A stretch of 20,000 nt of DNA, taken from an uncultured virus (IMG/VR IMGVR_UViG_3300034759_000204). Its lineage: Duplodnaviria; Heunggongvirae; Uroviricota; Caudoviricetes. A program made the translations under genes and the position numbers. The DNA lies in IMG/VR virus record IMGVR_UViG_3300034759_000204. One strand, written 5' to 3'. Positions 2,238 through 20,000 of the stretch are shown here, in pieces (the stretch's first letter is position 1; the number at the start of each line of letters is the position of its first letter). Under the pieces are notes generated by a model, which was not told the DNA's origin, searched no databases, and saw only the letters and a list, made by a program, of their open reading frames with translations.

Positions 2238-3821
2238 ATGGATGATAAAAATCTTAAAACAGGTAAAAAAGGTAAAAGTTTAAAAGAATTAGGTTTAAAA
2301 ACAAGAAACTTGAGTTTAGATATGACTGAAGGTTGTAGTTTAAGATGTAAATATTGTTTTGCCGATTTTGCTGCTGAAAAAAGAGAAAATAGAAAGCTAA
2401 CAGAAGATGTTATGAAAGCTGCCATTGATTGGTTATTTGATGATGGGACATCTGGGACTACAGAAGAAGTTAACAAGGAAGGCGGATTAGGGTTCGAACC
2501 ATGGGGCGGTGAGCCATGGCACAATTTTCAAATGTTACAAAAAGCATATGAATATTTTGAAAAGAAATCTAAAGAAACTGGTAAAAAAATAGGGCATATA
2601 GGTGGAACAACAAATGCTGTAGAATTTACTGAAGAAAGATTAAAATGGTGTAAAGACCACAACATTACTTGGCTAATATCGTTAGACGGCATAAAAGAAA
2701 ATCACGATAAACAAAGAGTATATGCTGATGGTAGTGGAAGTTTTGATGTTGTTGATAAAAATGTTGATTTATACAAAAAAGTATATGGGTTTGCCCCGCA
2801 GTTAAGAATGTCTTTACATCCAGATTATATTGATAATATTTATAAAAGTTATGAGTATGTGTTAGGTAAAGGTGTAAAATCTTATTTCTTTTCCCCAGTC
2901 TTTGAAGCTAACTGGACTGAAGAAAGTTTTAAAGAATTAGAAGATCAAATAGTTAGGTTATATGAAAAATTAATATTAGATTATAAAAGTGGTTTCCCTA
3001 AAGTAGATAATAAATTTATAGACGATATGATTTATTATATATTAGGTGCACAAAGAAAAGGTATAAATTTAGATGAGATTGAAAAGACAGGATCATATGA
3101 TGTAAATTTAAATGGCCTATCAAAAGGTATGCATTTACCAAAACCATGTGGTGCTGGAACCTCATATTTTGGAGTTACTGTAGAAGGACAAATTTTTGTA
3201 TGCCATAGATTTAATAAACATGGATTGGATCCTAAAAAAATTGGCTTTGATAAAAGATATGGTTGGTTAGGTAATGTGTGGGAAGGTATACATAATGTAG
3301 ATTTAGTAAATGAACTTAAAAATTGGGATGTAAAAGATTTAGAACATTGTAAATATTGTAAGTTAAAGTATTACTGTAAAGGAAGTTGTTATGCTTCAAA
3401 TTACGATAATACTGGTAATATTAAAGGATATCATAAAAATGCTTGTAAAATTAATTTTGCTTTATATAACGCTGCTTTAAGAATAATTGATTTATTCAAA
3501 AAGAATAATATGTTTGATTATGAAAAAAATGATATTATTTTCCCACAACAAAATTTTGGTAATTCATTTCAAGGTAGAAATGGACAAAGTATTAATTCCT
3601 GTATGTGTAATAACGCAACTTATTATTTCAATGGATTAGAACAATTATTATCTGATGAAAAGCCTGAAAATGTAGAAGATCTTAAAATGCAAATACTAGA
3701 TGGCGGAATTAATGTGCTACTTGATATGTACCAAGAAGTTAAAATGAATAAGGGTAATAATAGACAGTTCAATAACCCTAAAAGTAATAACATAAAAAAG
3801 AAATTTAATTTCAAATTGTAA
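2238..3821 (+). CDS. Radical SAM/SPASM domain protein (peptide-maturase/anSME-like), 527 aa
   Basis: SD AAGGAG at ~2222. Motifs: CSLRCKYC (CxxxCxxC), WGGEP, TTN, ISLDG, SPASM PCGAG...G.IFVCHRF and CKYC-x5-CKGSC...C. No internal TAG. Confidence 0.95.
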   Translation: MDDKNLKTGKKGKSLKELGLKTRNLSLDMTEGCSLRCKYCFADFAAEKRENRKLTEDVMKAAIDWLFDDGTSGTTEEVNKEGGLGFEPWGGEPWHNFQMLQKAYEYFEKKSKETGKKIGHIGGTTNAVEFTEERLKWCKDHNITWLISLDGIKENHDKQRVYADGSGSFDVVDKNVDLYKKVYGFAPQLRMSLHPDYIDNIYKSYEYVLGKGVKSYFFSPVFEANWTEESFKELEDQIVRLYEKLILDYKSGFPKVDNKFIDDMIYYILGAQRKGINLDEIEKTGSYDVNLNGLSKGMHLPKPCGAGTSYFGVTVEGQIFVCHRFNKHGLDPKKIGFDKRYGWLGNVWEGIHNVDLVNELKNWDVKDLEHCKYCKLKYYCKGSCYASNYDNTGNIKGYHKNACKINFALYNAALRIIDLFKKNNMFDYEKNDIIFPQQNFGNSFQGRNGQSINSCMCNNATYYFNGLEQLLSDEKPENVEDLKMQILDGGINVLLDMYQEVKMNKGNNRQFNNPKSNNIKKKFNFKL

Positions 3822-4172: not shown

Positions 4173-7100
4173 ATGCCTAGCTTAATTAATGAATATAATG
4201 CTATTTATACATTATATGATAATATATTCCCATTTTAGGGTTAGAAAAATTAGCAATTAATAGAGCCATAGACTACTAATTTAATAGGTAATGGAAATTT
4301 ATAGTTAGATTCTAATGCTGATAATATTTCTGATTTTTTTAATGCTTCTACTCTAACTTTTGTTAATATTAATGATATTTTTTCAAAAACATATAATGTA
4401 TTAAATTATTAGACACAAAAAGGTTTTTATATAAATATAACAAATAAAACTACTCAAACAACTTAGTATTCATAGCTTAAAATATATTCTAATAATATAA
4501 ATATTCAATAGAGTACTACTTATAACCTATCTTTACAAGGTAAATTAGATAATTCTGTTTTAATTGTGTTTTAGGAAATATATGATAGTACTAACACATT
4601 AATACAAAATCAACAACTTAATTTATCTGAAGTTCTTATAATGAGTGATAATACTAAAATATATTCAGGTTCTGTTATTTAGCCTTAGAATTCTTCATAT
4701 ATAAAATTTTCTTTTGAAATAAGAATACCACAAAAAAGTCAAGGGTCTTAGCTATTAAACAATGTACAATTAGAAAACAGAAATTATTGGACTTCATTTT
4801 AGAATCCAACAAATCCTTAGAATCTTATTATAACTGATATTGGTGAACATTTTTCCTTAACTAACACTGGTTATTTTTATATTCCTACATCTAAAAAACA
4901 AAATTATGAATAGAATTTAATTTCTATAGGAAAACCTTTTGAATAGAATAGTATAACTTTATATTTTGAAAATTCATATTAGACCCTTGCTGTTAAAATC
5001 ACTGATAATACTGGATAGATTGTTTTTGAACATCATAATATTAGTTATGATTAGCTATGGAATTATTTTTAGTTAGCTTACAGACAAAATGGTGTTGGTA
5101 TAGATTTAAAACTTTTTATCAACAACACAAAAGTATTTGAACAAAATATATAGGAAATAAATTTAGATTATAACAACACATAGTTTAAAAAAGTATATAT
5201 AGGCCATAGTTATTCTGAGAGTCAATAGATAAATCAACTAAATGGTTTTGTTTCTGTTATAAAAGGTGTTGGAAGTTATATATTAGATGACGAAATACTT
5301 AATATTTATAATAATAAAAAAATATATTCTTCAACAAGATCTTTAGTACGTAGTGCTGATATAAATGCAACATTACTTGGTGGGTTATCTCCAAGCGAAT
5401 TTGCAACGTCAACACATAGCCACGACGATAGATATAGAAATAAAGTAGAATCAGATAATACATATGTTTTTAAACATGGTGACACATTAACTGGTACATT
5501 AACCGCCCCTACACTTCAAATAAACGATGGGAATACCAAAATACTAGAGGGTGGTACAAATAGTGTAAGAATACAAACTAATTCTGGGTATGTTGATATT
5601 GGCCCTCAGAATACTTCCTTGTCACATTTTAATACCGACAGACCAAAATTCTATTTTGGCAAACCTGTTCAGATTAATGGTAATATAGAAAGTGATGGCG
5701 GTACTAGAACGATAACAGGGTTTAATCTATCTGGTAATGCATCTACATAGTCTAAACTAGAAACCGCTAGAACTATTAGCTTAACAGGTGATGTTACTGG
5801 TTCAACGACTTTCGATGGATCGTAGAATGTTTCTATAACCGCTACCGTTGCTAATGATTCACATACACACGATACTAGATATTATACTGAATCAGAAGCA
5901 GATAGTAGGTTCGTAAATGCCTCTGGTGATACTATTACTGGTACATTAGCATACAATGATGTTTCAAGATATTGGTTATCTACTGCTACCAACTATGGAA
6001 TTTATTGGGAAACTACTAACCACGAACTTGAATTTCATGGAGCTGGGGTAGATAAATTTCATGTTGATTTAGATGACGGGAACACTTGGATTGGCGGTAC
6101 TTTAAGCGTTTCTGGTGCAATAACTGGTTCACTTTCTGGTAATGCGTCTACATAGTCTAAGTTGCAAACAGCTAGAACTATTAGTTTAGCAGGTGATGTT
6201 ACTGGCTCAACGACTTTCGATGGATCGTAGAACGTTTCTATATCTGCTACTGTTGCAAACGATTCACATAGCCATAGCAATGCTACTATCACATCTGTCG
6301 ATTGGAGTAAACTTACTAATGTACCTGATCCAACAATTACTTTAAGCGGTGATATAACTGGTTAGTAGACTATGACAAATCTCGGGAGTATAACTATAAC
6401 TGCTACCGTTGCTAATGATTCACATACACACGATACTAGATATTATACTGAATCAGAAGCAGATAGTAGGTTCGTAAATGCCTCTGGCGATACTATTACT
6501 GGTACATTAACATACAATGATGTTTCAAGATATTGGTTATCTGCTGCTACCAACTATGGAATTTATTGGGATACTACTAACCACGAACTTGAATTTCATG
6601 GGGCAGGGGTAGATAAATTTCATGTTGATTTAGATAACGGGAACACTTGGATTGGCGGTACTTTAAGTGTTTCTGGTGCAATAACTGGTTCACTTTCTGG
6701 TAATGCGTCTACATAGTCTAAGTTGCAAACAGCTAGAACTATTAGCTTAGCAGGTGATGTTACTGGCTCAACGACTTTCGATGGATCGTAGAACGTTTCT
6801 ATATCTGCTACTGTTGCAAACGATTCACATAGCCATAGCAATGCTACTATCACATCTGTCGATTGGAGTAAACTTACTAATGTACCTGATCCAACAATTA
6901 CTTTAAGCGGTGATGTAACTGGCTAGTAGACTATGACAAACCTCGGAAGTATAACTATAACTGCTACCGTCGTTGACGACTCACATACACACGATACTAG
7001 ATATTATACTGAATCAGAAGCAGACAGCAGATTCGTTAATGTAGCAGGCGATACTGTTACAGGATAGCTTACTTTTAGTGGCAACACCTCTTTCAATAAT

Positions 7101-7697
7101 GTGATGAATATAAATTCAGAAATGAGAATTGAAAATTAGAATCCTTCTGTATATATATGGAATAATTAGGGTGGGGCTTAGAATTTATATTTTGGAGAAA
7201 ATACTAGTTCTGGATATGGATTACATTTATATTGGGATTCCTCATATACCACATACTTAAAATCAAGGCATTAGGGTGTTGATACTAATGTATTTCATAT
7301 TGATACAAGAAATTAGGATTTTGTATTAGACCAACCTTTAATTTCTACATATGGTGAAAATGGTGGGTTATATATAGGGACTAATGGAAGTAAGCCACAA
7401 ATAACAACAGTTAACGGGGAACAAATGGTTCTTAGATCAAATGAAATAAGATTTGCTGATAATATCTAGTGGGGATATGATTCATTTAGTGGGATTAAAT
7501 ATGATTCAGTTAACAAAAAGATGTACATTGGTGGGTCAAACAGTTCTCATTTTACTTCTAGTACTAATCCTCAAGATATAGATGTAGAATTTGATGGTGT
7601 AAATGATGTAAAAGTAAATGGTACTTTGACTATTCAAGGTTTTACTATACAATATAATTAGAGTGATGAATCTTTTGATTTCATATATTTAGGGTGA
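4173..7697 (+). CDS. Phage tail fibre / receptor-binding protein (~1174 aa, many TAG codons)
   Basis: SD GAGGTG, ATG 4173, no TAA/TGA until TGA 7695-7697. Fibre repeats GNAST*SKLQTARTISLAGDVTGSTTFDGS*NVSI, HxH motifs (DSHTHDTRYYTESE), GDTxTGxL and C-terminal IQYN*SDESFDFIYLG. Confidence 0.88.
5835..6956 (+). repeat. Near-identical 561-bp in-frame tandem duplication (5835-6395, 6396-6956; partial third copy to ~7065)
   Basis: The same sequence recurs at a 561-nt offset, mirrored by the duplicate antisense ORFs 6059-6292 and 6620-6853. Confidence 0.93.
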
Positions 7698-7702
7698 TAA
7701 TA

Positions 7703-10591
7703 GTGAGTTAGGTTGTTGGTAAACTTAAAAATAACTCTTTATATACAAAAAAAGAAATATCAGAAACACAGCCACCAGAATACGATAAACTTATTCTTTA
7801 TTTATCACTTCAAGGTTATTTATTAGATACTAAAAATTACCTTGAAGATGTTGGATTAGATAAATTTAATGCCTCTTCTGGTATTAATACTTATTGGATT
7901 AATATGACACAAGATGGTACTTTTTTAGGTAATCCTATTTATAGAGTTGAAAAAGGTAGTTCTGATGATGGATATTTTTATAGATACAATATTAGTGGTT
8001 TAGAAAAAATATAGGAAGCTGAAGAATATGTACTAACAGGTATATTCAAATCATCTAATTCTAACGAAACAATAGAAGCAATCGATCATCCATATTAGGG
8101 TGGAGGATCCCCATGGACATAGGGCAATCATATCCCGCCTTATGAATCATACGACGATAGATATTATTTAGGTGATGGTTGGTGGAGATATATTTATAGA
8201 TTTAAAATAGATAGAACACAAATAACTAATTAGGCTTATAAAAATAATTTATATTTTGGATTTCAATGGTATTGGTAGGACACTGGGCAATATGTTTGGG
8301 GTACATAGCCTTAGTTATATGTTGGAAATTCTAAAAAAATTTATCAAGGGCATAAATCTTCTTATTCATATGATAATCTAATTAGTTATAAAGATTAGTT
8401 AAGTTTTGAAGGACCTATAACTAATCAAATTTCTATATCCAATATGAATAATTATCCTATTGGTTATACAGGAAATGTATGTGGATTTAGTAATAATTTT
8501 GAAGAAAGGTTTGGTTAGGGTAATTGGAATACTAAAATAATAAAATAGGATAATTGTATTATACCTGAAATACGAAAAGCACAAAGAATAATAACAACTT
8601 AGAGTGGTTGGGGTGGATGGACTGCTGGCAATATCGGTAATACTTCTGGGGATATTACTTATGGTGTTTTAATACGTCTACATTATGGTGAAATACAATT
8701 TGGTGATTTAAATACTTCTAATAGATTGTATATTAACTCAAACTACTATGAACAAAAAGGAAAAAAATTAGGAGAGTGGATTTGGTAGTGTGGAACATTT
8801 TTAGGTTCTACTGGTGGTAGACATCTTTATTAGAATGGAATTACTAAAGCTGATATTTAGTAGGTTTAGATTTATAATACAAATCAACAATTAAGTTATG
8901 TAGATGGCAGTAAAGATTAGAGTTATCTTGATTTACCTGTTGATGTTTTTAACAAATTTAAAGATGAAATAACAGTAAGTTTTATATATGAACCTTTATC
9001 TAATTATTCATATGGAACATGGCCATAGATTTTTACATTAAATTGGTGGATTAGTGGGAATACAAATGATTGGTTTGGAATATATAGAGGTAATGGATGG
9101 AGTTCATAGGATTCTATTACTTTTAGTGTAGTAGATGGAACTAGATAGTATTCAAAAGGTACTTCTATGACAGGTATTAATTCTAGATTAAATCATAAAC
9201 TTTTTATATAGATGTCTTATAGTAAACTTAATAAAAATTTATAGATATTTGTTAGAGATATTAATACTAGTGAAGATTTGTTAAAAACAAATATTTCTTT
9301 ACAAACAGATTTTTCATTTGATAAAACATTCAGCTATTAGAAATTAGGTTATTTAAATCAAGGGTCAGATTAGCAAAATTAGAAAATTACTAATTTCAGT
9401 TTTTATCATAAAAGTTTTAATTAGGATAAATTATATACTTTAATACCAAGAGTATTTTAGATTGATAAAAATGGATTTCTAAAAACAAAAGAAATTCAAG
9501 AACCTCATGATTTATTAACAGAATATGGGCCAACATAGTTTGAAACTGGTTAGTTTGGTGGGATTTATGGGACGTATACTCAAACAAATATTAGTGTGTC
9601 TGTAGTACCAAGAAAATTTAAAACACCATATTCTTACTTTATTAAAAGAACTCCTAATATTACTGATACTGGTAGCACTTCACAAAACTGGGGTGGATTA
9701 AAATTATCATTCCCAGATGACAAACAATGGGAAGAAAATCAAACTTATAGAGTGAGTTTTTGGTATACTGGATATTCACAGCATACAATAGAAATTTATT
9801 TTGCTTATAATATTGGTTATACTACGATGGGAGTTGGATTAACCAAAATTTCTTTGCCTTCTATTACTAATTAGTTCGTTGACGAAGATGGGTGGAAATA
9901 TTATGAATAGGAGTTTACTATACCTAATGGATTTATATACCAAACTGGAAGCGATGGTAATATATACTACTGTATGAGAGAATTTAAAATAGGTTATAAT
10001 TATACTACTACTGATGAGTATGGAACTAGACTTTATGTTAATGATCTTAAAATAGAAAGAATTTCTAAAAACAATGAATATAAAAAAACTAGAGGAATAA
10101 AAAAGTATGGTGTTTATATAAAAGAATGGATAGAAAATAACAAATTTACTGATGTTTATATTGTAGGTACAGCTTTATAGTCTACATATCCAGAAAACAG
10201 AACTAATGGTAATAGAATTTTAAAAATAAATGGAACACAAATTTATAATACAACAGGAAGAGGTTTAAGATTAACAATCTTTGATTCTAATTTTACTGTT
10301 ATTAGTGATACCACTTATGATGTATATGGTGATGATGTGTAGAGAACAAATCTAGCTAATTAGTTAATTTAGATTGATAAACAAAAATATTGGTAGTTAA
10401 CTTCATATGATTAGGTTAATTCAAATATAGACTTGAACAATTAGATGTAGAGTTTAGGCTCTAAAATTTGGCCTTTATCTTATAGATCACCTTATTAGGC
10501 TGTTGGTAAAGGGCAGAAGATTATAAAAGAAGATGGATAGATGAATAACGTAAATTATGTTAGTAAATAGGTAATTAATATTAAAATTTAA
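7703..10591 (+). CDS. Large tail-associated protein (~962 aa) with beta-rich, carbohydrate-binding-like domains and a C-terminal ILEI/GG-lectin-like domain
   Basis: GTG 7703 just after the upstream stop, open through TAG to TAA 10589-10591. It subsumes track ORFs 9596-9874 and 9974-10180. C-terminus GRGLRLTIFD...TYDVYG...TSYD*V...RSPY*AVG resembles ILEI/PANDER domains. Confidence 0.8.
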
Positions 10592-10603: not shown

Positions 10604-12121
10604 ATGGCTGATTTATCTAATGGGACAACAATAGGTGGATTTAGATAGTTACATGAGAATTTATAGAAACCAACATTATTTGACGATTTAACAGTTCCTA
10701 CACTTCAAATAAACGATGTTAATACCAAAATATTAGAAGGCACGTCCAATAGTATAAGAATACAAACTAATTCTGGGTATGTTGATATTGGCCCTCAGAA
10801 TACTTCCTTGTCACATTTTAATACCGACAGACCAAAATTCTATTTTAACCAACCTATTCAGATTAATGGGAATATAGAAAGTGATGGCGGTACTAGAACG
10901 ATAACAGGTTTTAATCTATCTGGTAATGCTTCTACATAGTCTAAGCTACAAACCGCTAGAACTATTAGCTTAGCAGGTGATGTTACTGGCTCAACGACTT
11001 TCGATGGATCGTAGAACGTTTCTATATCTGCTACAGTCGTTGATGACTCACATAGTCATAGCAATGCTACTATCACATCTGTCGATTGGAGTAAACTTAC
11101 TAATCTGCCTGATCCAACGATTACTTTAAGCGGTGATGTAACTGGTTAGTAGACTATGACAAACCTCGGAAGTATAACTATAACTTCTACCGTCGGCGAT
11201 GATTCACATAGTCATAGTAATTCCACAATTACATCTGTTGATTGGAGTAAACTTACCAATGTACCTGATCCAACAATTACTTTAAGTGGTGATGTAACTG
11301 GTTAGTAGACTATGACAAACCTCGGAAGTATAACTATATCTGCTACTGTTGCTAATGACTCACATACACACGATACTAGATATTATACAGAATCAGAAGC
11401 AGATAGTAGATTCGTTAATGTTACTGGAGATACTATGACTGGTAATCTTACAATATTAAAAAACAAACCATGGTTAACTTTAGATAGTTCTAGTTCTGGT
11501 GATAATTTAAACGAACAATAGGCTGGCATAAGTATAGGTGAAGCTGGAACTGGAGGTTAGTCATTACATTTAGTATATACTGGTGATGGCTATTAGTATA
11601 TAGGAATGGGTTCTACATCCCCTATTCCTTAGTATAAAGCTATGCGATTTCATTATACTAATAATAATGTACTTTTCTATGGCACTATAACAGCAACAAA
11701 AGTCTATGGTGCAGTCTACAACGACTATGCTGAATATAGAAGTTCTGATGAGCCTATAGATTTTGGTTATGTATAGATAGAAGATGAAAAAGGTAATGTA
11801 ATTAAATGTAATGAAGATAGAAGTAAAAAAGTATAGGGAGTGAGTACTGATACTTTAGGATTTTAGATTGGAAAACAAAAAGATACTGATACTCCTATTG
11901 CTGTTGCTGGTAGAGTTTTAGTTTATTAGATTGATAAACATAAACTTAGAATTGGTGATTAGGTGTGTTCTACTAAAGAAGGGAAAGTTAGAAAAATGAA
12001 ATGGTGGGAAAAGATATTTTTTCCAGAATAGATTGTTGGTTATGTTAGTGAATTTCCTGATTATGATATATGGGGTAGTGATAATATTAAAGTTAATGGT
12101 AGGATTTGGATTAGAATTTAA
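10604..12121 (+). CDS. Tail fibre protein (~505 aa) with a C-terminal intramolecular-chaperone/peptidase-G2-like domain
   Basis: SD GAGGG. N-terminus MADLSNGTTIGG recalls T4 gp36-like starts. Shares fibre repeats with 4173-7697. C-terminus VYGAVYNDYAEYR...DTLGF*IG...PIAVAGRVLV...GD*VCS...VNGRIWIRI, then TAA 12119-12121. Confidence 0.87.
11048..11360 (+). repeat. 156-bp (52 aa) tandem repeats SHSHSN.TITSVDWSKLTN.PDPTITLSGDVTG**TMTNLGSITI
   Basis: TCACAT unit starts at 11048, 11204 and 11360. The same module occurs inside the 561-bp repeat. Confidence 0.85.
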
Positions 12122-13347: not shown

Positions 13348-14040
13348 ATGGCAATTGCATTAGAATAGATAACAACATCATATTCTATAACTGGAGGAGA
13401 ATTAATTAGAGCAGAAATAAGGACATAGTTGAATAAAGCAAAAAACAATGCAGCTGATTATGGTTACCCTATCAGTGGTTTTGTAGATTCTGATATAATA
13501 TATGGGAATAGCCAATTTAGATTAATTTAGAATTCATATTAGACTATATCTTCTACTATGGGTTTTGGGAATGCTCCACCTTCCAGCTCATATTTTGATA
13601 CAAATGATACTATAGATGATGCATATGTGTCACCCTTAGTTTCTTCTATAAAGTATTATTCAACTTGCCGTTGTAATTATAACAACTATTATAAATATCA
13701 ATATTGTGTAGAAAAAGGGACATGCACATGTAATACTCGTTAGACTCGAAGTTGTTCATGTAATGTAAATTTTTTTTGTACTTGCCAAACTGTATATGCT
13801 ACAGATATTAGAGATTATAATTATTGTAGTGTTTGTAGTAGCAATTACGTTTCTTGTTCATGTAATAAATACTTTGGCTGTGTGGAACGTAGAACTTTGG
13901 ACGAAATACAAGGGTGTTAGTGTAATTCAGATAAAGATACAAAAACAAATTTATGTAGTACAAATTTACGGAACAGTAGTTGTTTAAATGGATGTACTTG
14001 TAATGCTGATGGGTGTAGATGTAACTCACAACTAGTTTAA
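13348..14040 (+). CDS. Second Cys-rich protein (230 aa): Cys-free N-terminal half and CxCN-rich C-terminal half; candidate rSAM substrate
   Basis: SD GAGGTG, ATG 13348, TAA 14038-14040. Contains CRCN, CTCN, CSCN, CTCQ, CSCN, C*CN, CTCN and CRCN motifs. Confidence 0.85.
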
Positions 14041-14054
14041 TAAAGGAGATTATT

Positions 14055-14564
14055 ATGTTTGAAGATTATATAAATTTATTGTTCAACAAAAAAATTGAAT
14101 ATAAAGATTTATTAATACCTGAAGAATTTATAGATAAATAGCAATTATTGTTTGATGAAATAATTAATTATTAGTTATATAATGATTTTGATGTTGAATA
14201 CAAAAAAAATCATCAGATTTAGAACATGAAACTAAAAGACGACATAATAGAATATATTTCACCTTTAGGTATTACAGTACAACTAGAAAAAAAGTTTGAT
14301 ACTTTAAAAAAAAATTAGGAATATTATAATTCAATTAGAGACGAAATGTAGAAAATAAAATGTACAAACTGTCAGTTACAATAGTATTGTCCATATGATA
14401 TACCTACTATAGATCAATGTGGATTTACTATAAAGTTTTAGGCATTATTATATAGAAATTTATTAGTTATATATGAAAATAAATACGTTAATAACAAAAA
14501 AGAACATATAAAACAAATAGATATTTGTAAAGATTTTAAGGCTGGTGTTATAAATGAGTTATAA
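14055..14564 (+). CDS. Hypothetical protein with a SPASM-like C-x2-C-x5-C motif (169 aa)
   Basis: SD AAGGAG, ATG 14055, TAA 14562-14564. Motif KCTNCQLQ*YCPY...QC. Overlaps the start of the next gene. Confidence 0.75.
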
Positions 14565-15786
14565 AGATTTCTTAAAAGATATATCAACAATCACTTTAAT
14601 TATGACTACTGATTGCAATTTGAGATGCAAATATTGTTTTACGCAAAACTATGGTTATAAACCAGAATATGTAGATTAGAAAGTATTTATAGATTTTATA
14701 AACGAATTATAGGAAATCAAAAATGGAGGTAGTATAGAAAATACGTTTTTTGGTGGTGAACCATTTTTACATTTAGATTAGATGAATGAAATTTAGGAAT
14801 ATTATTAGAAAAAAAATTTTGTTCATTCTAACACAAGAATATTATTTAGTGCTGTTACGAATGGCACTATTATAAATGATAAAATCGTAGACTTTATAAA
14901 TAAATATTTATATAACATACAATTTAGTATAGATGGTTCTATTAAAACTCAAGATAAATATAGAGTTACATAGAATGATAGAGGTTCTTATTATTTAATA
15001 CTAAATTAGATAAGTAAAAATTTAAAAAACATAAATACAAATATGTCTATTAAACAAACGTACTAGCCATATGGTTAGTTGAATATATTAGAAAATTATA
15101 AAGACTAGTATTAGAATTTCTTCCATCCTTTAAAGGATATAACTTTTACATCTATGATTATAAGAAGTGTCGATGTATTTGAACAAGAAGAACAAATATA
15201 GTACATAGACGAATATGCCAAAACATATGATTGGTGGTATGAAAATTTTGTTAAAAAAGGATTTTATAAAGAATAGACATTTTTTGGAGAATTTACTAGA
15301 AATGTGCAGGATATAAATGGTACTTTGAACAATTTCTTTACAACAGAAAATAAAACCCCATGTGGTTAGGGAAAATCACTTTTCGGCATTGATCAAAATG
15401 GTAATTTGTATCCATGCCATCATTTCTAGTATAGCGAACCTGGATATACTGACTTTAAACTTTTAACATACAAACAAAACGGTGATTTATCAAAAATAGA
15501 TTTAGAAAAATTGCAATAGTTTAATTCATATAATCTAACAAAAGGTCCCTGTAATCATTGTTAGGCTTCTTAGAATTGCTATTATTGTCTAGCTGAAAAC
15601 TATCAATACAGGAAAAATTTGAATATGCCTGATAAAAAACTATGTTTAGTTGGTAGAAGTGAAAACTCTATTCAACAAACTTATTATAAAAAAATTTTAT
15701 AGACAAATAATGATTTTATAGATTATATTAATTCATTTGAATATACAATACCTCAAAATAACATTGTTAATTATAGTATGATCTGA
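14554..15786 (+). CDS. Second radical SAM/SPASM protein (410 aa, 19 in-frame TAG)
   Basis: Motifs CNLRCKYC, FFGGEP, VTNGT, FSIDG, PCG*G...NGNLYPCHHF and CNHC-x5-CYYC. TGA 15784-15786. Confidence 0.92.
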
Positions 15787-16901: not shown

Positions 16902-17204
16902 TTGAAAATTGAAGGTGCACAAAAATTAGGTGGTAAAGTAGCTGTTATTTTATACTACGATAAAAAAGAAAAATTGTATTATTCATACATCTATTCGTTT
17001 GGTACTATGCTGTATGGGGATACATTAGAAGAATGTATTGAAGAAACTTTAGAAGTGTTGAAAGAATATAAAGAATTACTAGATAATGGGAAAATAAAAT
17101 TTAGTTCACTTAAAAAAAAAGAAAGTTTTTCAAAAACAATACAGTTATACTGGGGTTTGCTGAAAACCAAAATTATTTCTTTTTTTCTAACAAAAAACCA
17201 GTAA
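16902..17204 (+). CDS. HicB-like (UPF0150) antitoxin-domain protein, 100 aa
   Basis: SD AGGAGG, TTG start. YYDKKEKLYY...GTMLYGDTLEECIEETLEVLKEY matches the HicB N-terminal G(D/E)TxEE pattern. No TAG. Confidence 0.65.
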   Translation: MKIEGAQKLGGKVAVILYYDKKEKLYYSYIYSFGTMLYGDTLEECIEETLEVLKEYKELLDNGKIKFSSLKKKESFSKTIQLYWGLLKTKIISFFLTKNQ

Positions 17205-17334
17205 TTAGTCCTAAAATTTGTTCTTTTGTAAAATTTTTTTCTTCTATTTCTTTTAGAAATTCTAATTCTTTTTCTGTTAAAGTATAACCTTCTATTTCTA
17301 AAGTTTGTTTTATATATTTAAATTTATCAAACAT
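17173..17334 (-). CDS. Small VbhA/FicA-like antitoxin candidate (53 aa)
   Basis: SD AAGGA. MFDKFKYIKQTLEIEGYTLTEKELEFLKEIEEKNFTKEQIL... contains the (S/T)xx(I/L)EG inhibitory motif. Confidence 0.55.
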   Translation of the reverse strand: MFDKFKYIKQTLEIEGYTLTEKELEFLKEIEEKNFTKEQILGLITGFLLEKKK

Positions 17335-17349
17335 TCAATCAATCCTTTT

Positions 17350-17502
17350 TTATCTAATACTGTAATAATAATTTTCTTCCTCTTCAATTCTAAGATAAGG
17401 AAATCTTATATATTGTCCATCAATATTTATTTCTGCATATTTTCCTTCTTTAGTAAGTTGTAAAAAAGTTAGTAAAACTTCTTCTTTTTCTTTACTTACC
17501 AT
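17350..17502 (-). CDS. Small hypothetical protein (50 aa)
   Basis: SD GAAGGCGG. MVSKEKEEVLLTFLQLTKEGKYAEINIDGQYIRFPYLRIEEEENYYYSIR, TAA stop. Confidence 0.6.
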   Translation of the reverse strand: MVSKEKEEVLLTFLQLTKEGKYAEINIDGQYIRFPYLRIEEEENYYYSIR

Positions 17503-17608
17503 ATTTTCCGCCTTCTTTCAACGAATTTTATAAATAATAAAAAAGGCCAAGGCTCACAAAGAATACCCTGGCACTGACTACTAAAACTAAATTAACAGTA
17601 TTTTTTCA

Positions 17609-18004
17609 TTAAATTTCAATAGTAGTTCTCATCATGAAGTACCATCCTTGAAAAGTTTCTGGTTCATTCTTTTCAACATCTTTCCAAGAAATTGTTTCAA
17701 AAGTAGTTCTTTTTGTGTTTGCGTTTTTACCAATATATTTATCTTTATATATCTCTTCATCTTCTTCTTCATATTCATCATCATATTTTCTTTTAATTTG
17801 TGTATATTCGTCTTCAAACCAAAAAATAAATGATTCTTCAATCAAATTTTCTTCATTTTCAAAATAACAAAATTTTAATTTCACACCATTTATAAGTTTT
17901 TTGAAATAAACTTCATTACAATACATTCCAAAATTTGTTTGTCCTCTTTTAGGCATAACTTGATAATAATCTTTAACTATTTTTTTAAATTCTTCTTTTG
18001 TCAT
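17609..18004 (-). CDS. Hypothetical acidic phage protein (131 aa)
   Basis: SD AAGGAG, ATG 18004, TAA stop, natural amino-acid composition, no TAG. Confidence 0.8.
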   Translation of the reverse strand: MTKEEFKKIVKDYYQVMPKRGQTNFGMYCNEVYFKKLINGVKLKFCYFENEENLIEESFIFWFEDEYTQIKRKYDDEYEEEDEEIYKDKYIGKNANTKRTTFETISWKDVEKNEPETFQGWYFMMRTTIEI

Positions 18005-18127
18005 AATATATCTCCTTATTAAAATTATTTTTTTTGTTATTAGATATTTTAATTATACTATTCATATATAGGATAATTAAACTTTGTTAATTTGTATTTG
18101 AGAAAATAAAAAAGGAGGAACAAAAAA

Positions 18128-18442
18128 ATGAATGAAATTTTATTTTGGGTATTAGGTTTTGGAATTATTTTGTTGGTTGGATGGTTATTGTCAAAAGATA
18201 AGGTTAAAGATGTTCTTGATACAGTAAAAGAAGTTGCTGAAATAGTTGTTGGTGAAACTGAACAATTGTCTAATTTTAATGAAATGACTAGCGAACAGAA
18301 AAAGGAATATTAGATGAGTAGAGCTAAGATTATTTTAGAAAAATTAGGAAAATCTAACGCAATTTCAGATGAAATGCTTTCAAGTGCTATTGAATAGGCT
18401 GTGTTATAGATGAACCTTTTTCGTCCAAAAGAAAAAGATTGA
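18128..18442 (+). CDS. Phage holin, LL-H-like family (104 aa)
   Basis: SD AGGAGG and an N-terminal TM helix. VGETEQ...EQKKEY*...LEKLG...SAIE*AVL*MN matches the LL-H holin pattern. TGA 18440-18442. Confidence 0.82.
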
Positions 18443-19171: not shown

Positions 19172-19735
19172 TTGCCAAAATCAGTTAATTTAAAAAGTTT
19201 AAAACCTGGAGATATTTTATTATTTAAAACAGGAAATTAGCTTAATTAGCCATATAATTTTGTTAAAAAAGTTTATGGCTAGACTATGTAGAATTTTCTA
19301 ATTAATAACCTAAAAAATGACTATATACATGCTGAAATTTATTATGGAGATCTTTATGGGCTTGGAGCTACTTAGAGTGGTAGTAGATTTGGGAAATATA
19401 GTTTAGAGTTGCTTTCTAACTTAACTATTATGAGACTGAAAGATAAAGAAATAGATCAAGAATTAATGAGAGAATAGATAAATCAATTTCATAATTTAGA
19501 ATATGACTTTGATTCTTTAATTAGAAATAGTATATCTGAAATACTTAACATAGTTAAATTAGAAAAAGTTTTAGAAAATTTGTATGAAATTGAAACACCA
19601 AACTAGCTGATTTGTTCTGAACTTGTCTAGCGTGTGTATACTGAATATGGAGAACCATTGTTTGAAAGAGAAGATTGGGTTTCACCACAGGATTTATTTG
19701 AAAATCCCAAACTAGAAATTATATATACTGTTTAA
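19172..19735 (+). CDS. Permuted papain-like amidase (YiiX/YaeF, peptidase C92-like), 187 aa
   Basis: SD AAGGAG, TTG 19172. Motifs LKPGDILLF, HAEIYYG, YDF, ICSELV*RVY and VSPQDL. TAA 19733-19735. Confidence 0.85.
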
Positions 19736-19741
19736 TCTTTT

Positions 19742-19769
19742 AAAGAGCCTTAAAAGGCTCTTTTTTTTT
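19742..19769 (+). terminator. Intrinsic terminator
   Basis: AAAGAGCCT-TAAA-AGGCTCTTT followed by a T-run. Confidence 0.85.
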
Positions 19770-19825
19770 ACATAAATCAACCCCATTGTTTGTTCTGATG
19801 TTAATTTATCTATGAACAAACAATT

Positions 19826-19902
19826 GGGGGCGTAGCTTAATAGGCGAGAGCAGTGGTCCCTAAAACCATTGGGTGTGGGTTCGAATCCCATCGCCTCCAC
19901 CA
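19826..19902 (+). tRNA. Amber-decoding tRNA, anticodon CUA, with alanine identity elements (tRNA-Ala(CUA))
   Basis: Cloverleaf: acceptor GGGGGCG/CGCCTCC (G3:U70), D-stem GCTT/GAGC, anticodon stem GTGGT/ACCAT with loop CC-CTA-AA (CTA 19860-19862), T-arm GTGGG-TTCGAAT-CCCAT, discriminator A and encoded CCA. Confidence 0.95.
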
Positions 19903-19905
19903 TTT

Positions 19906-19934
19906 AAACAGAGGATTAATCCTCTGTTTTTTTT
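19906..19934 (+). terminator. Intrinsic terminator after the tRNA
   Basis: AAACAGAGGA-TTAA-TCCTCTGTTT followed by a T-run. Confidence 0.85.
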
Positions 19935-19951
19935 ATTTTTATCAGAAAACA

Positions 19952-19993
19952 AGCAAGAAGACTCCCACCTCTTTAGGTGGGAGATGAATTGCT
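19952..19993. mobile_element. Probable IS200/IS605-family subterminal hairpin (element end)
   Basis: AGCAA...CTCCCACCT-CTTT-AGGTGGGAG...TTGCT resembles tnpB-associated IS ends of low-GC bacteria. No transposase lies within the window. Confidence 0.5.
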
Positions 19994-20000
19994 AACATAG

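Follow-up and report, generated by a model that had tools for sequence, protein, structure and literature searches.

An amber-reading tRNA with alanine identity elements in a TAG-rich phage genome and the probable use of TAG as an alanine codon

The window and its tRNA gene

The stretch of DNA analysed here, hereafter the window, comprises 20,000 nucleotides from an uncultured virus of the Caudoviricetes and is phage-like in its genes (tail fibres, holin), with 28% G+C. Its 19 ORFs hold 179 in-frame TAG codons against 151 GCN codons, TAG being found in 16 of the 19, and alanine accounts for only 2.4% of the residues if TAG is not counted. Reading through TAG raises the coding cover from 0.23 to 0.88, and reading through TGA leaves it at 0.23; on a looser measure, the baseline of 0.35 becomes 0.92 with TAG, 0.43 with TGA and 0.81 with TAA. 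The window thereby combines the features of stop-recoded phages, namely a gain in density upon read-through of one stop, phage genes and a cognate suppressor tRNA.

On the forward strand, TAG is found in two tail-fibre-like genes (4173..7697, 42 in-frame TAGs; 10604..12121, 18 TAGs), a tail-associated gene (7694..10591, 43 TAG vs 11 GCN), a radical SAM gene (14554..15786, 19 TAG vs 4 GCN), the holin (PF09682; 18128..18442, 3 TAGs) and the gene just upstream of the tRNA (19172..19735, 8 TAG vs 2 GCN). Another radical SAM gene (2238..3821, forward strand) is free of TAG and readable without the tRNA; the absence of TAG from its 18 alanine codons, all GCN, has a P of about 7e-7, and no relatives of this gene were found in the viral contigs. 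Very Cys-rich repeat proteins adjoin both the TAG-free and the TAG-rich radical SAM gene (3-2129 with 2238-3821, and 13348-14040 with 14554-15786), and such a combination in the tail region resembles a RiPP-like modification module. A stop-free shadow frame of 562 codons (457-2145) overlaps the Cys-rich gene and is probably a by-product of its repeats. Avoidance of GpC was considered as a driver of TAG use and rejected: rho is 0.92 for the window, where GpC exceeds expectation at codon positions 2-3 and 3-1, and 1.07 for Aeromonas phage AhSzw-1.

The sole tRNA gene of the window lies at 19826..19902 on the forward strand and was recovered by ARAGORN with the anticodon CTA, as well as by a whole-model match to RF00005 of Rfam (65.5 bits, E 1.7e-12). 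The pairs of its acceptor stem, as read off the letters, are G1-C72, G2-C71, G3:U70 (19828:19896), G4-C69, G5-C68, C6-G67 and G7-C66, followed by the discriminator A73 (19899) and an encoded CCA, which confirms the cloverleaf with CUA, G1-C72, G2-C71, G3:U70 and A73 that an earlier note on this DNA had described. The free-energy fold is by itself unremarkable (z -1.24). Three departures set the tRNA apart from the consensus of its family: an extra C following G18-G19 in the D loop, a U:G pair at 13-22, and C33. The last of these belongs to an anticodon loop of the form C32 C33 CUA A37 A38, in which C at 19859 replaces the near-invariant U33 of canonical elongators. U33 has been called almost invariant (PMC5041475), and a natural yeast tRNA with C33 is nearly normal in function (PMC13492127).

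Pyrrolysine tRNAs have G73, a short D loop without G18-G19, a 3-base variable loop and no TTC. The label Pyl given by ARAGORN derives from the anticodon alone, and a pyrrolysine identity is contradicted by A73, the GG of the D loop, the 5-base variable loop, the TTC and the canonical fold. The bacterial alanine identity set, in the part of the source available (PMC9976931), consists of A73, G2-C71, G3:U70, G4-C69 and G20, with G3:U70 governing alanylation. All four acceptor elements of that set are present in the window tRNA, which supports the alanine identity proposed earlier; as for G20, the extra C sits between G19 and the G preceding A21. The glutamine elements given in the same part of that source, G73, U1-A72 and G3-C70, which would characterize a code-15 suppressor, are absent. 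Among tRNAs from six phage-type loci, the nearest ordinary one is Ala(UGC) at 0.71 identity, the next being at 0.64. A general scan of viral contigs for amber tRNAs listed 120 of at least 120 loci, 29 of these 120 lacking a CUA tRNA, and among the matches listed only 1 of the 93 CUA tRNAs parsed has G3:U70, so its occurrence in the window tRNA is not due to chance. The commonest acceptor type among the matches listed in that scan (L038-L157; 31/93) has G1-C72, C2-G71, G3-C70 and A73 and matches neither the glutamine nor the alanine set.

A hairpin search recovered three terminator-like hairpins against 0.3 expected in shuffles. One of these (19742..19770, forward strand) closes the upstream gene run, and the tRNA is therefore probably its own transcription unit; another (19906..19935, forward strand) lies directly 3' of the tRNA. 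The leader contains an inverted repeat (19781..19829, forward strand), in which 19781-19795 can pair with 19814-19829. The calculated probability of the G3:U70 pair is 0.0 for transcripts starting at 19770 and 19781, and 0.93-0.97 for all seven starts from 19785 onwards; in this folding model, the leader repeat would sequester G1-G4 of the tRNA in any transcript beginning at 19781 or further upstream. The leader 19781-19829 yielded no sigma-70 consensus promoter, and several relatives have such a promoter in place of the leader repeat. Further downstream, a hairpin-bearing repeat (19938-19997), which resembles an insertion-sequence end, recurs in several G005 contigs and is covered very deeply in runs X1 and X3.

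The residue encoded by TAG

Over 58 TAG columns in three genes of the window, aligned with distant homologues, alanine scores +8.4 and the next residue, valine, -35.8, with control codons being recovered in 46/46 cases; a separate scoring over 43 TAG columns gives alanine 1.1 and glutamine -29.0. The reading of TAG as alanine in these proteins, as advanced in the earlier note, is thus upheld by the homologue columns. Two tail genes supply this signal, those at 7694..10591 (alanine +19.5, next valine -9.5) and 10604..12121 (alanine +8.0, next serine -7.4). The homologues of the radical SAM gene at 14554..15786 (28% identity) are too distant to tell the residue: TAG favours valine there, with alanine outside the top four, and the glutamine control fails too. 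Internal repeats, in which the residue opposite TAG is TAG 12 times, Ser and Thr three times each and Ala never, are uninformative.

The same tRNA type occurs in five cultured T5-like phages of Aeromonas, namely AhSzq-1, AhSzw-1 (our locus L005), Akh-2, TS3 and AhP_Mru1. About 100 kb of the 116-kb AhSzw-1 genome, and 50 kb of Akh-2, were compared with stretches of 50 kb from each of four T5-like phages that use the standard code. Opposite TAG of AhSzw-1, alanine fills 38% of 488 cells and glutamine 4%, and in the columns with at least three references agreeing the residue is alanine in 18/30 and glutamine in 1/30; the corresponding shares for Akh-2 are 42% and 4%, with alanine in 24/30 conserved columns. 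The controls in this comparison are 50% alanine at GCN and 40% glutamine at CAR. In AhSzw-1, TAG is missing from the DNA polymerase, ligase and origin-binding genes, and tail genes have up to 84 (in the fibre gene). The complete AhSzw-1 record gave no match to the AlaRS, class Ic synthetase or RF-1 domain families, and the lack of an AlaRS match makes the AlaRS of the host the likely charger. Worded as a possibility in the earlier note, charging by host AlaRS with no phage synthetase finds support in this relative by mechanism, as far as domain searches can tell. Contigs with the amber tRNA and the tRNA cluster of AhSzw-1 were also encountered in a Phocaeicola MAG (L008, L012), where they are probably misbinned phage DNA.

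Automatic tools read TAG as glutamine (code 15) or, by the ARAGORN label, as pyrrolysine. Glutamine is found at all TAG sites of the closest database proteins (19/19 and 18/18), and Cook 2024, in the part available, lists the three Shenzhenvirus genomes AhSzq-1, AhSzw-1 and Akh-2 under table 15, i.e. TAG as Gln (PMC11210395); the accessible portion of the Akh-2 paper makes no mention of recoding. However, those glutamines are presumably what a code-15 gene caller prints, and P0001-P0003, P0121 and P0241 were left out of the residue inference because they are probable code-15 translations, as were seven further matches in which at least 40% of the TAG sites show Q. The independent homologues give alanine, TAG in the window proteins does not align with glutamine, and the tRNA has a canonical, not Pyl-like, fold and no glutamine elements. 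We therefore regard the glutamine or pyrrolysine reading as highly improbable.

Related tRNAs and the alleles of sister strains

We scanned viral contigs, genomes and metagenomes with a motif for amber tRNAs having the acceptor stem of the window tRNA. This yielded 7 viral loci (4 with a true CUA), 8 genome loci (5 with CUA) and 57 metagenome loci, whose tRNAs comprise 26 distinct sequences. By density, 29 of the metagenome loci are TAG-recoded, 9 belong to an ochre family, 11 are unclear or unrecoded and 8 are too short; none of 31 control pieces is TAG-recoded. One locus, L010, is genuinely related to the window, with radical SAM proteins 71-73% identical and a U33 allele of the tRNA. Four loci (L013, L015, L161 and L168) carry G3:U70 amber tRNAs without a recoding signal, and in the gut phages G001/G002, whose amber tRNA is of this kind, 17 exchanges link TAG to Gln codons and 4 to Ala codons; hence, the tRNA predicts but does not prove that TAG encodes alanine. 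TAG of G001/G002 scatters against standard-code relatives, with little glutamine and no clear residue, and when the recoded loci were all compared with one another, the counts were small and mixed, most often led by Ala or Ser.

These exchanges bear on an ambiguous UAG, read chiefly as alanine but to a real extent as Gln, Lys or Tyr, which has to be weighed because the synthetases for these three amino acids also recognize U35 and A73 (listed as their elements in the available part of PMC9976931). It is also favoured by the lower conservation of TAG than of GCN columns (modal Ala 16/58 vs 20/26) and by the mixed insertion at UAG in E. coli, where allo-tRNAs with G3:U70 and CUA insert mainly Ala, along with traces of Asn, Gln and Lys, as given in the accessible portion of PMC5389517. 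Yet, the runners-up at TAG columns of the window (Val, Ser, Thr and Gly) are the usual substitutes of alanine, and the 4% share of glutamine at TAG in the T5-like comparison is close to the 2-3% at GCN columns. A substantial ambiguity hence appears unlikely to us, and alanine remains the preferred reading.

The ochre family consists of nine loci with 24-26% G+C (L158, L163, L170, L182, L192, L196, L201, L209 and L212), in which one to three ochre (UUA) tRNAs with G3:U70 and A73 accompany the amber tRNA. GCN codons are nearly absent from these loci, which show strong GpC avoidance (rho 0.14). The T4-gp17-like terminase of L196 has 60 TAA, 10 TAG and no GCN codons; opposite its TAA, alanine fills 25% of 747 cells and glutamine 7%, and alanine is modal in 12 columns. 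It is likely from these sequences that TAA and TAG both encode alanine in this family and that TGA is its sole stop. Also encoded in L196 is a protein with an RF-1 domain (17095-18159, reverse strand; domain match of 102.9 bits) with GGQ and SPT motifs, whose gene has no internal TAA or TAG and ends in TGA. Its SPT stands where RF2 has SPF. No alanine-type ochre tRNA was found in the viral contigs, and UAA as Gln was sought and not found in one jumbo-phage survey, in the part of it available (PMC13037316). If confirmed, the ochre family would represent a reassignment of UAA in a prokaryotic virus.

U33 is present in all 26 related tRNA types, although the scan motif permitted C, and C33 is unique to the window allele; it recurs in record 7 of run X1, a contig without any difference from the window, X1 possibly being the window's own source. 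Sister strains retain the tRNA gene at the same position, and their contigs (runs X1, X5 and X6) are interrupted between 19861 (U35) and 19862 (A36), with the lengths for X5 record 24 implying an insert of about 1.0 kb in the anticodon. Loose ends from X6 have U33 and fold into a hairpin of six pairs whose junction carries a U:G pair; they terminate with a hairpin capped by GAAA and a last G. These features we take to be hallmarks of group I introns, and the insert of the sister alleles appears intron-like, the putative group I assignment being based on its ends. The intron end was found neither in the viral contigs nor in 230 loci, and the 105 matches from a scan for split tRNAs, of which many are the ends of tmRNAs, include no split amber tRNA. 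As C33 would mismatch in the junction hairpin, we speculate that it marks an escape from the intron. Related contigs are present in the RNA run X6; contigs cannot demonstrate expression.

A different consequence of these departures would be that TAG is alanine but the window allele is a weakened or secondary copy, with another suppressor elsewhere doing most of the decoding. C33, the extra D-loop C and U13:G22 are compatible with this, as are the leader hairpin able to trap G1-G4, the tandem amber copies at L178, L184, L185, L202 and L203, and the window being 20 kb of a genome. In contrast, the allele retains an intact acceptor stem, T arm and CCA, the gene is flanked by terminators of its own and kept in place by sister strains, and C33 is tolerable (PMC13492127). 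We consider a weakened allele rather doubtful, and somewhat less so than an ambiguous UAG.

Alanine insertion, competition with RF1 and precedents

We regard it as probable that the phage amber tRNA, charged by host AlaRS, inserts alanine at UAG. This account is computational, drawing on the anatomy of the tRNA, the in-frame TAGs, the alignment with alanine, and the same tRNA type and code in unrelated phages; the charging, the activity of the C33 allele, the timing and the overcoming of RF1 competition are what we infer. In the proposed mechanism, host AlaRS would charge the tRNA through G3:U70, A73, G2-C71 and G4-C69 without reading the anticodon, and once the tRNA is abundant ribosomes would put alanine at UAG. 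UAG would then serve as the commonest alanine codon of the phage in tail, lysis and many other genes, with few genes being TAG-free. The tRNA would outcompete RF1 late in infection, and TAG-free genes such as 2238-3821 could be read without it; RF1 might be overcome by a high dose of the tRNA, a further anti-RF1 function, or both.

By arithmetic, genes with 42-43 TAGs would give 1%, 11% and 65% of full-length product at read-through of 90, 95 and 99% per codon, respectively, which means that RF1 must be outcompeted or disabled. The earlier note had held that this one gene could implement the code: its alanine identity, TAG as alanine and the role of host AlaRS stand, but sufficiency is called into question by these yields, C33 and the unrecoded loci, and the genome beyond these 20 kb may encode a second suppressor or a release factor. 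That the tRNA is necessary but insufficient, an RF1 inhibitor, RF2 or host shut-off being needed as well, has in our estimate slightly better than an even chance, and is compatible with the main explanation. The yields calculated for genes with 43 and 84 TAGs point this way, as do the RF2 of certain Lak and Agate phages with recoded TAG (Borges preprint 10.1101/2021.08.26.457843, available part) and the RF-1-domain gene beside the ochre-family tRNAs. On the other hand, the complete AhSzw-1 has an 84-TAG fibre gene yet no RF-1-domain match, though a novel inhibitor would be invisible to that search.

Several known systems resemble this arrangement. As described in the parts of the sources available, code-15 phages (crAss-like, Lak, Agate) likewise have a phage CUA tRNA, TAG-rich structural and lysis genes, a TAG-free subset and a presumed host synthetase; the window differs in that the residue is alanine, set by the acceptor stem, and TAG is the majority codon for it. 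In the accessible portion of the Borges preprint (10.1101/2021.08.26.457843), the reassignments observed where the code of the phage differs from that of the host are limited to TAG to Gln and TGA to Trp. The same codon meaning and kind of tRNA, derived from tRNA-Ala, are found in mitochondria of the green algae Hydrodictyaceae and Neochloris, where UAG is alanine and is read by an alanine-type tRNA(CUA) (PMC6821328, available part). There, however, the code is that of a whole organelle with an altered release factor, whereas the phage must impose its code against a presumably standard host RF1. The allo-tRNAs that insert mainly alanine in E. coli share G3:U70 and CUA with the window tRNA, but, in the portion of PMC5389517 available, have an engineered anticodon and an 8/4 or 9/3 fold, unlike the canonical 7/5 fold and naturally recoded genome here. 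In the literature searched, which leaves most subscription papers outside, we found no report of UAG as alanine in phages.

We lean towards a broader proposal, taken as a whole: as AlaRS ignores the anticodon, alanine-identity tRNAs would be a repeated, one-step phage route to the capture of stop codons; TAG would be alanine in many lineages mistranslated as code 15, including the cultured Aeromonas phages; one family (L158, L196, L209 and kin) would use TAA and TAG as alanine and TGA as sole stop, with near-total loss of GCN and a phage release factor; and tRNA supply in the window lineage may be gated by a group I anticodon intron or the leader hairpin. The finding would add a codon meaning, with a clear molecular cause, to the phage repertoire. 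As the arrangement is shared by laboratory-grown Aeromonas phages, TAG as alanine is directly testable, and the cultured Shenzhenvirus phages would give bench access to a phage code switch in a standard-code host, with the tRNA alone set against RF1. Pipelines that print Gln at each recoded TAG corrupt the protein databases for these lineages. Separately, we observed two terminases, P0376 and P0377, that have 1 and 0 Ala and 48 and 43 Gln, respectively, and are probably from further phages of this kind stored as code 15.
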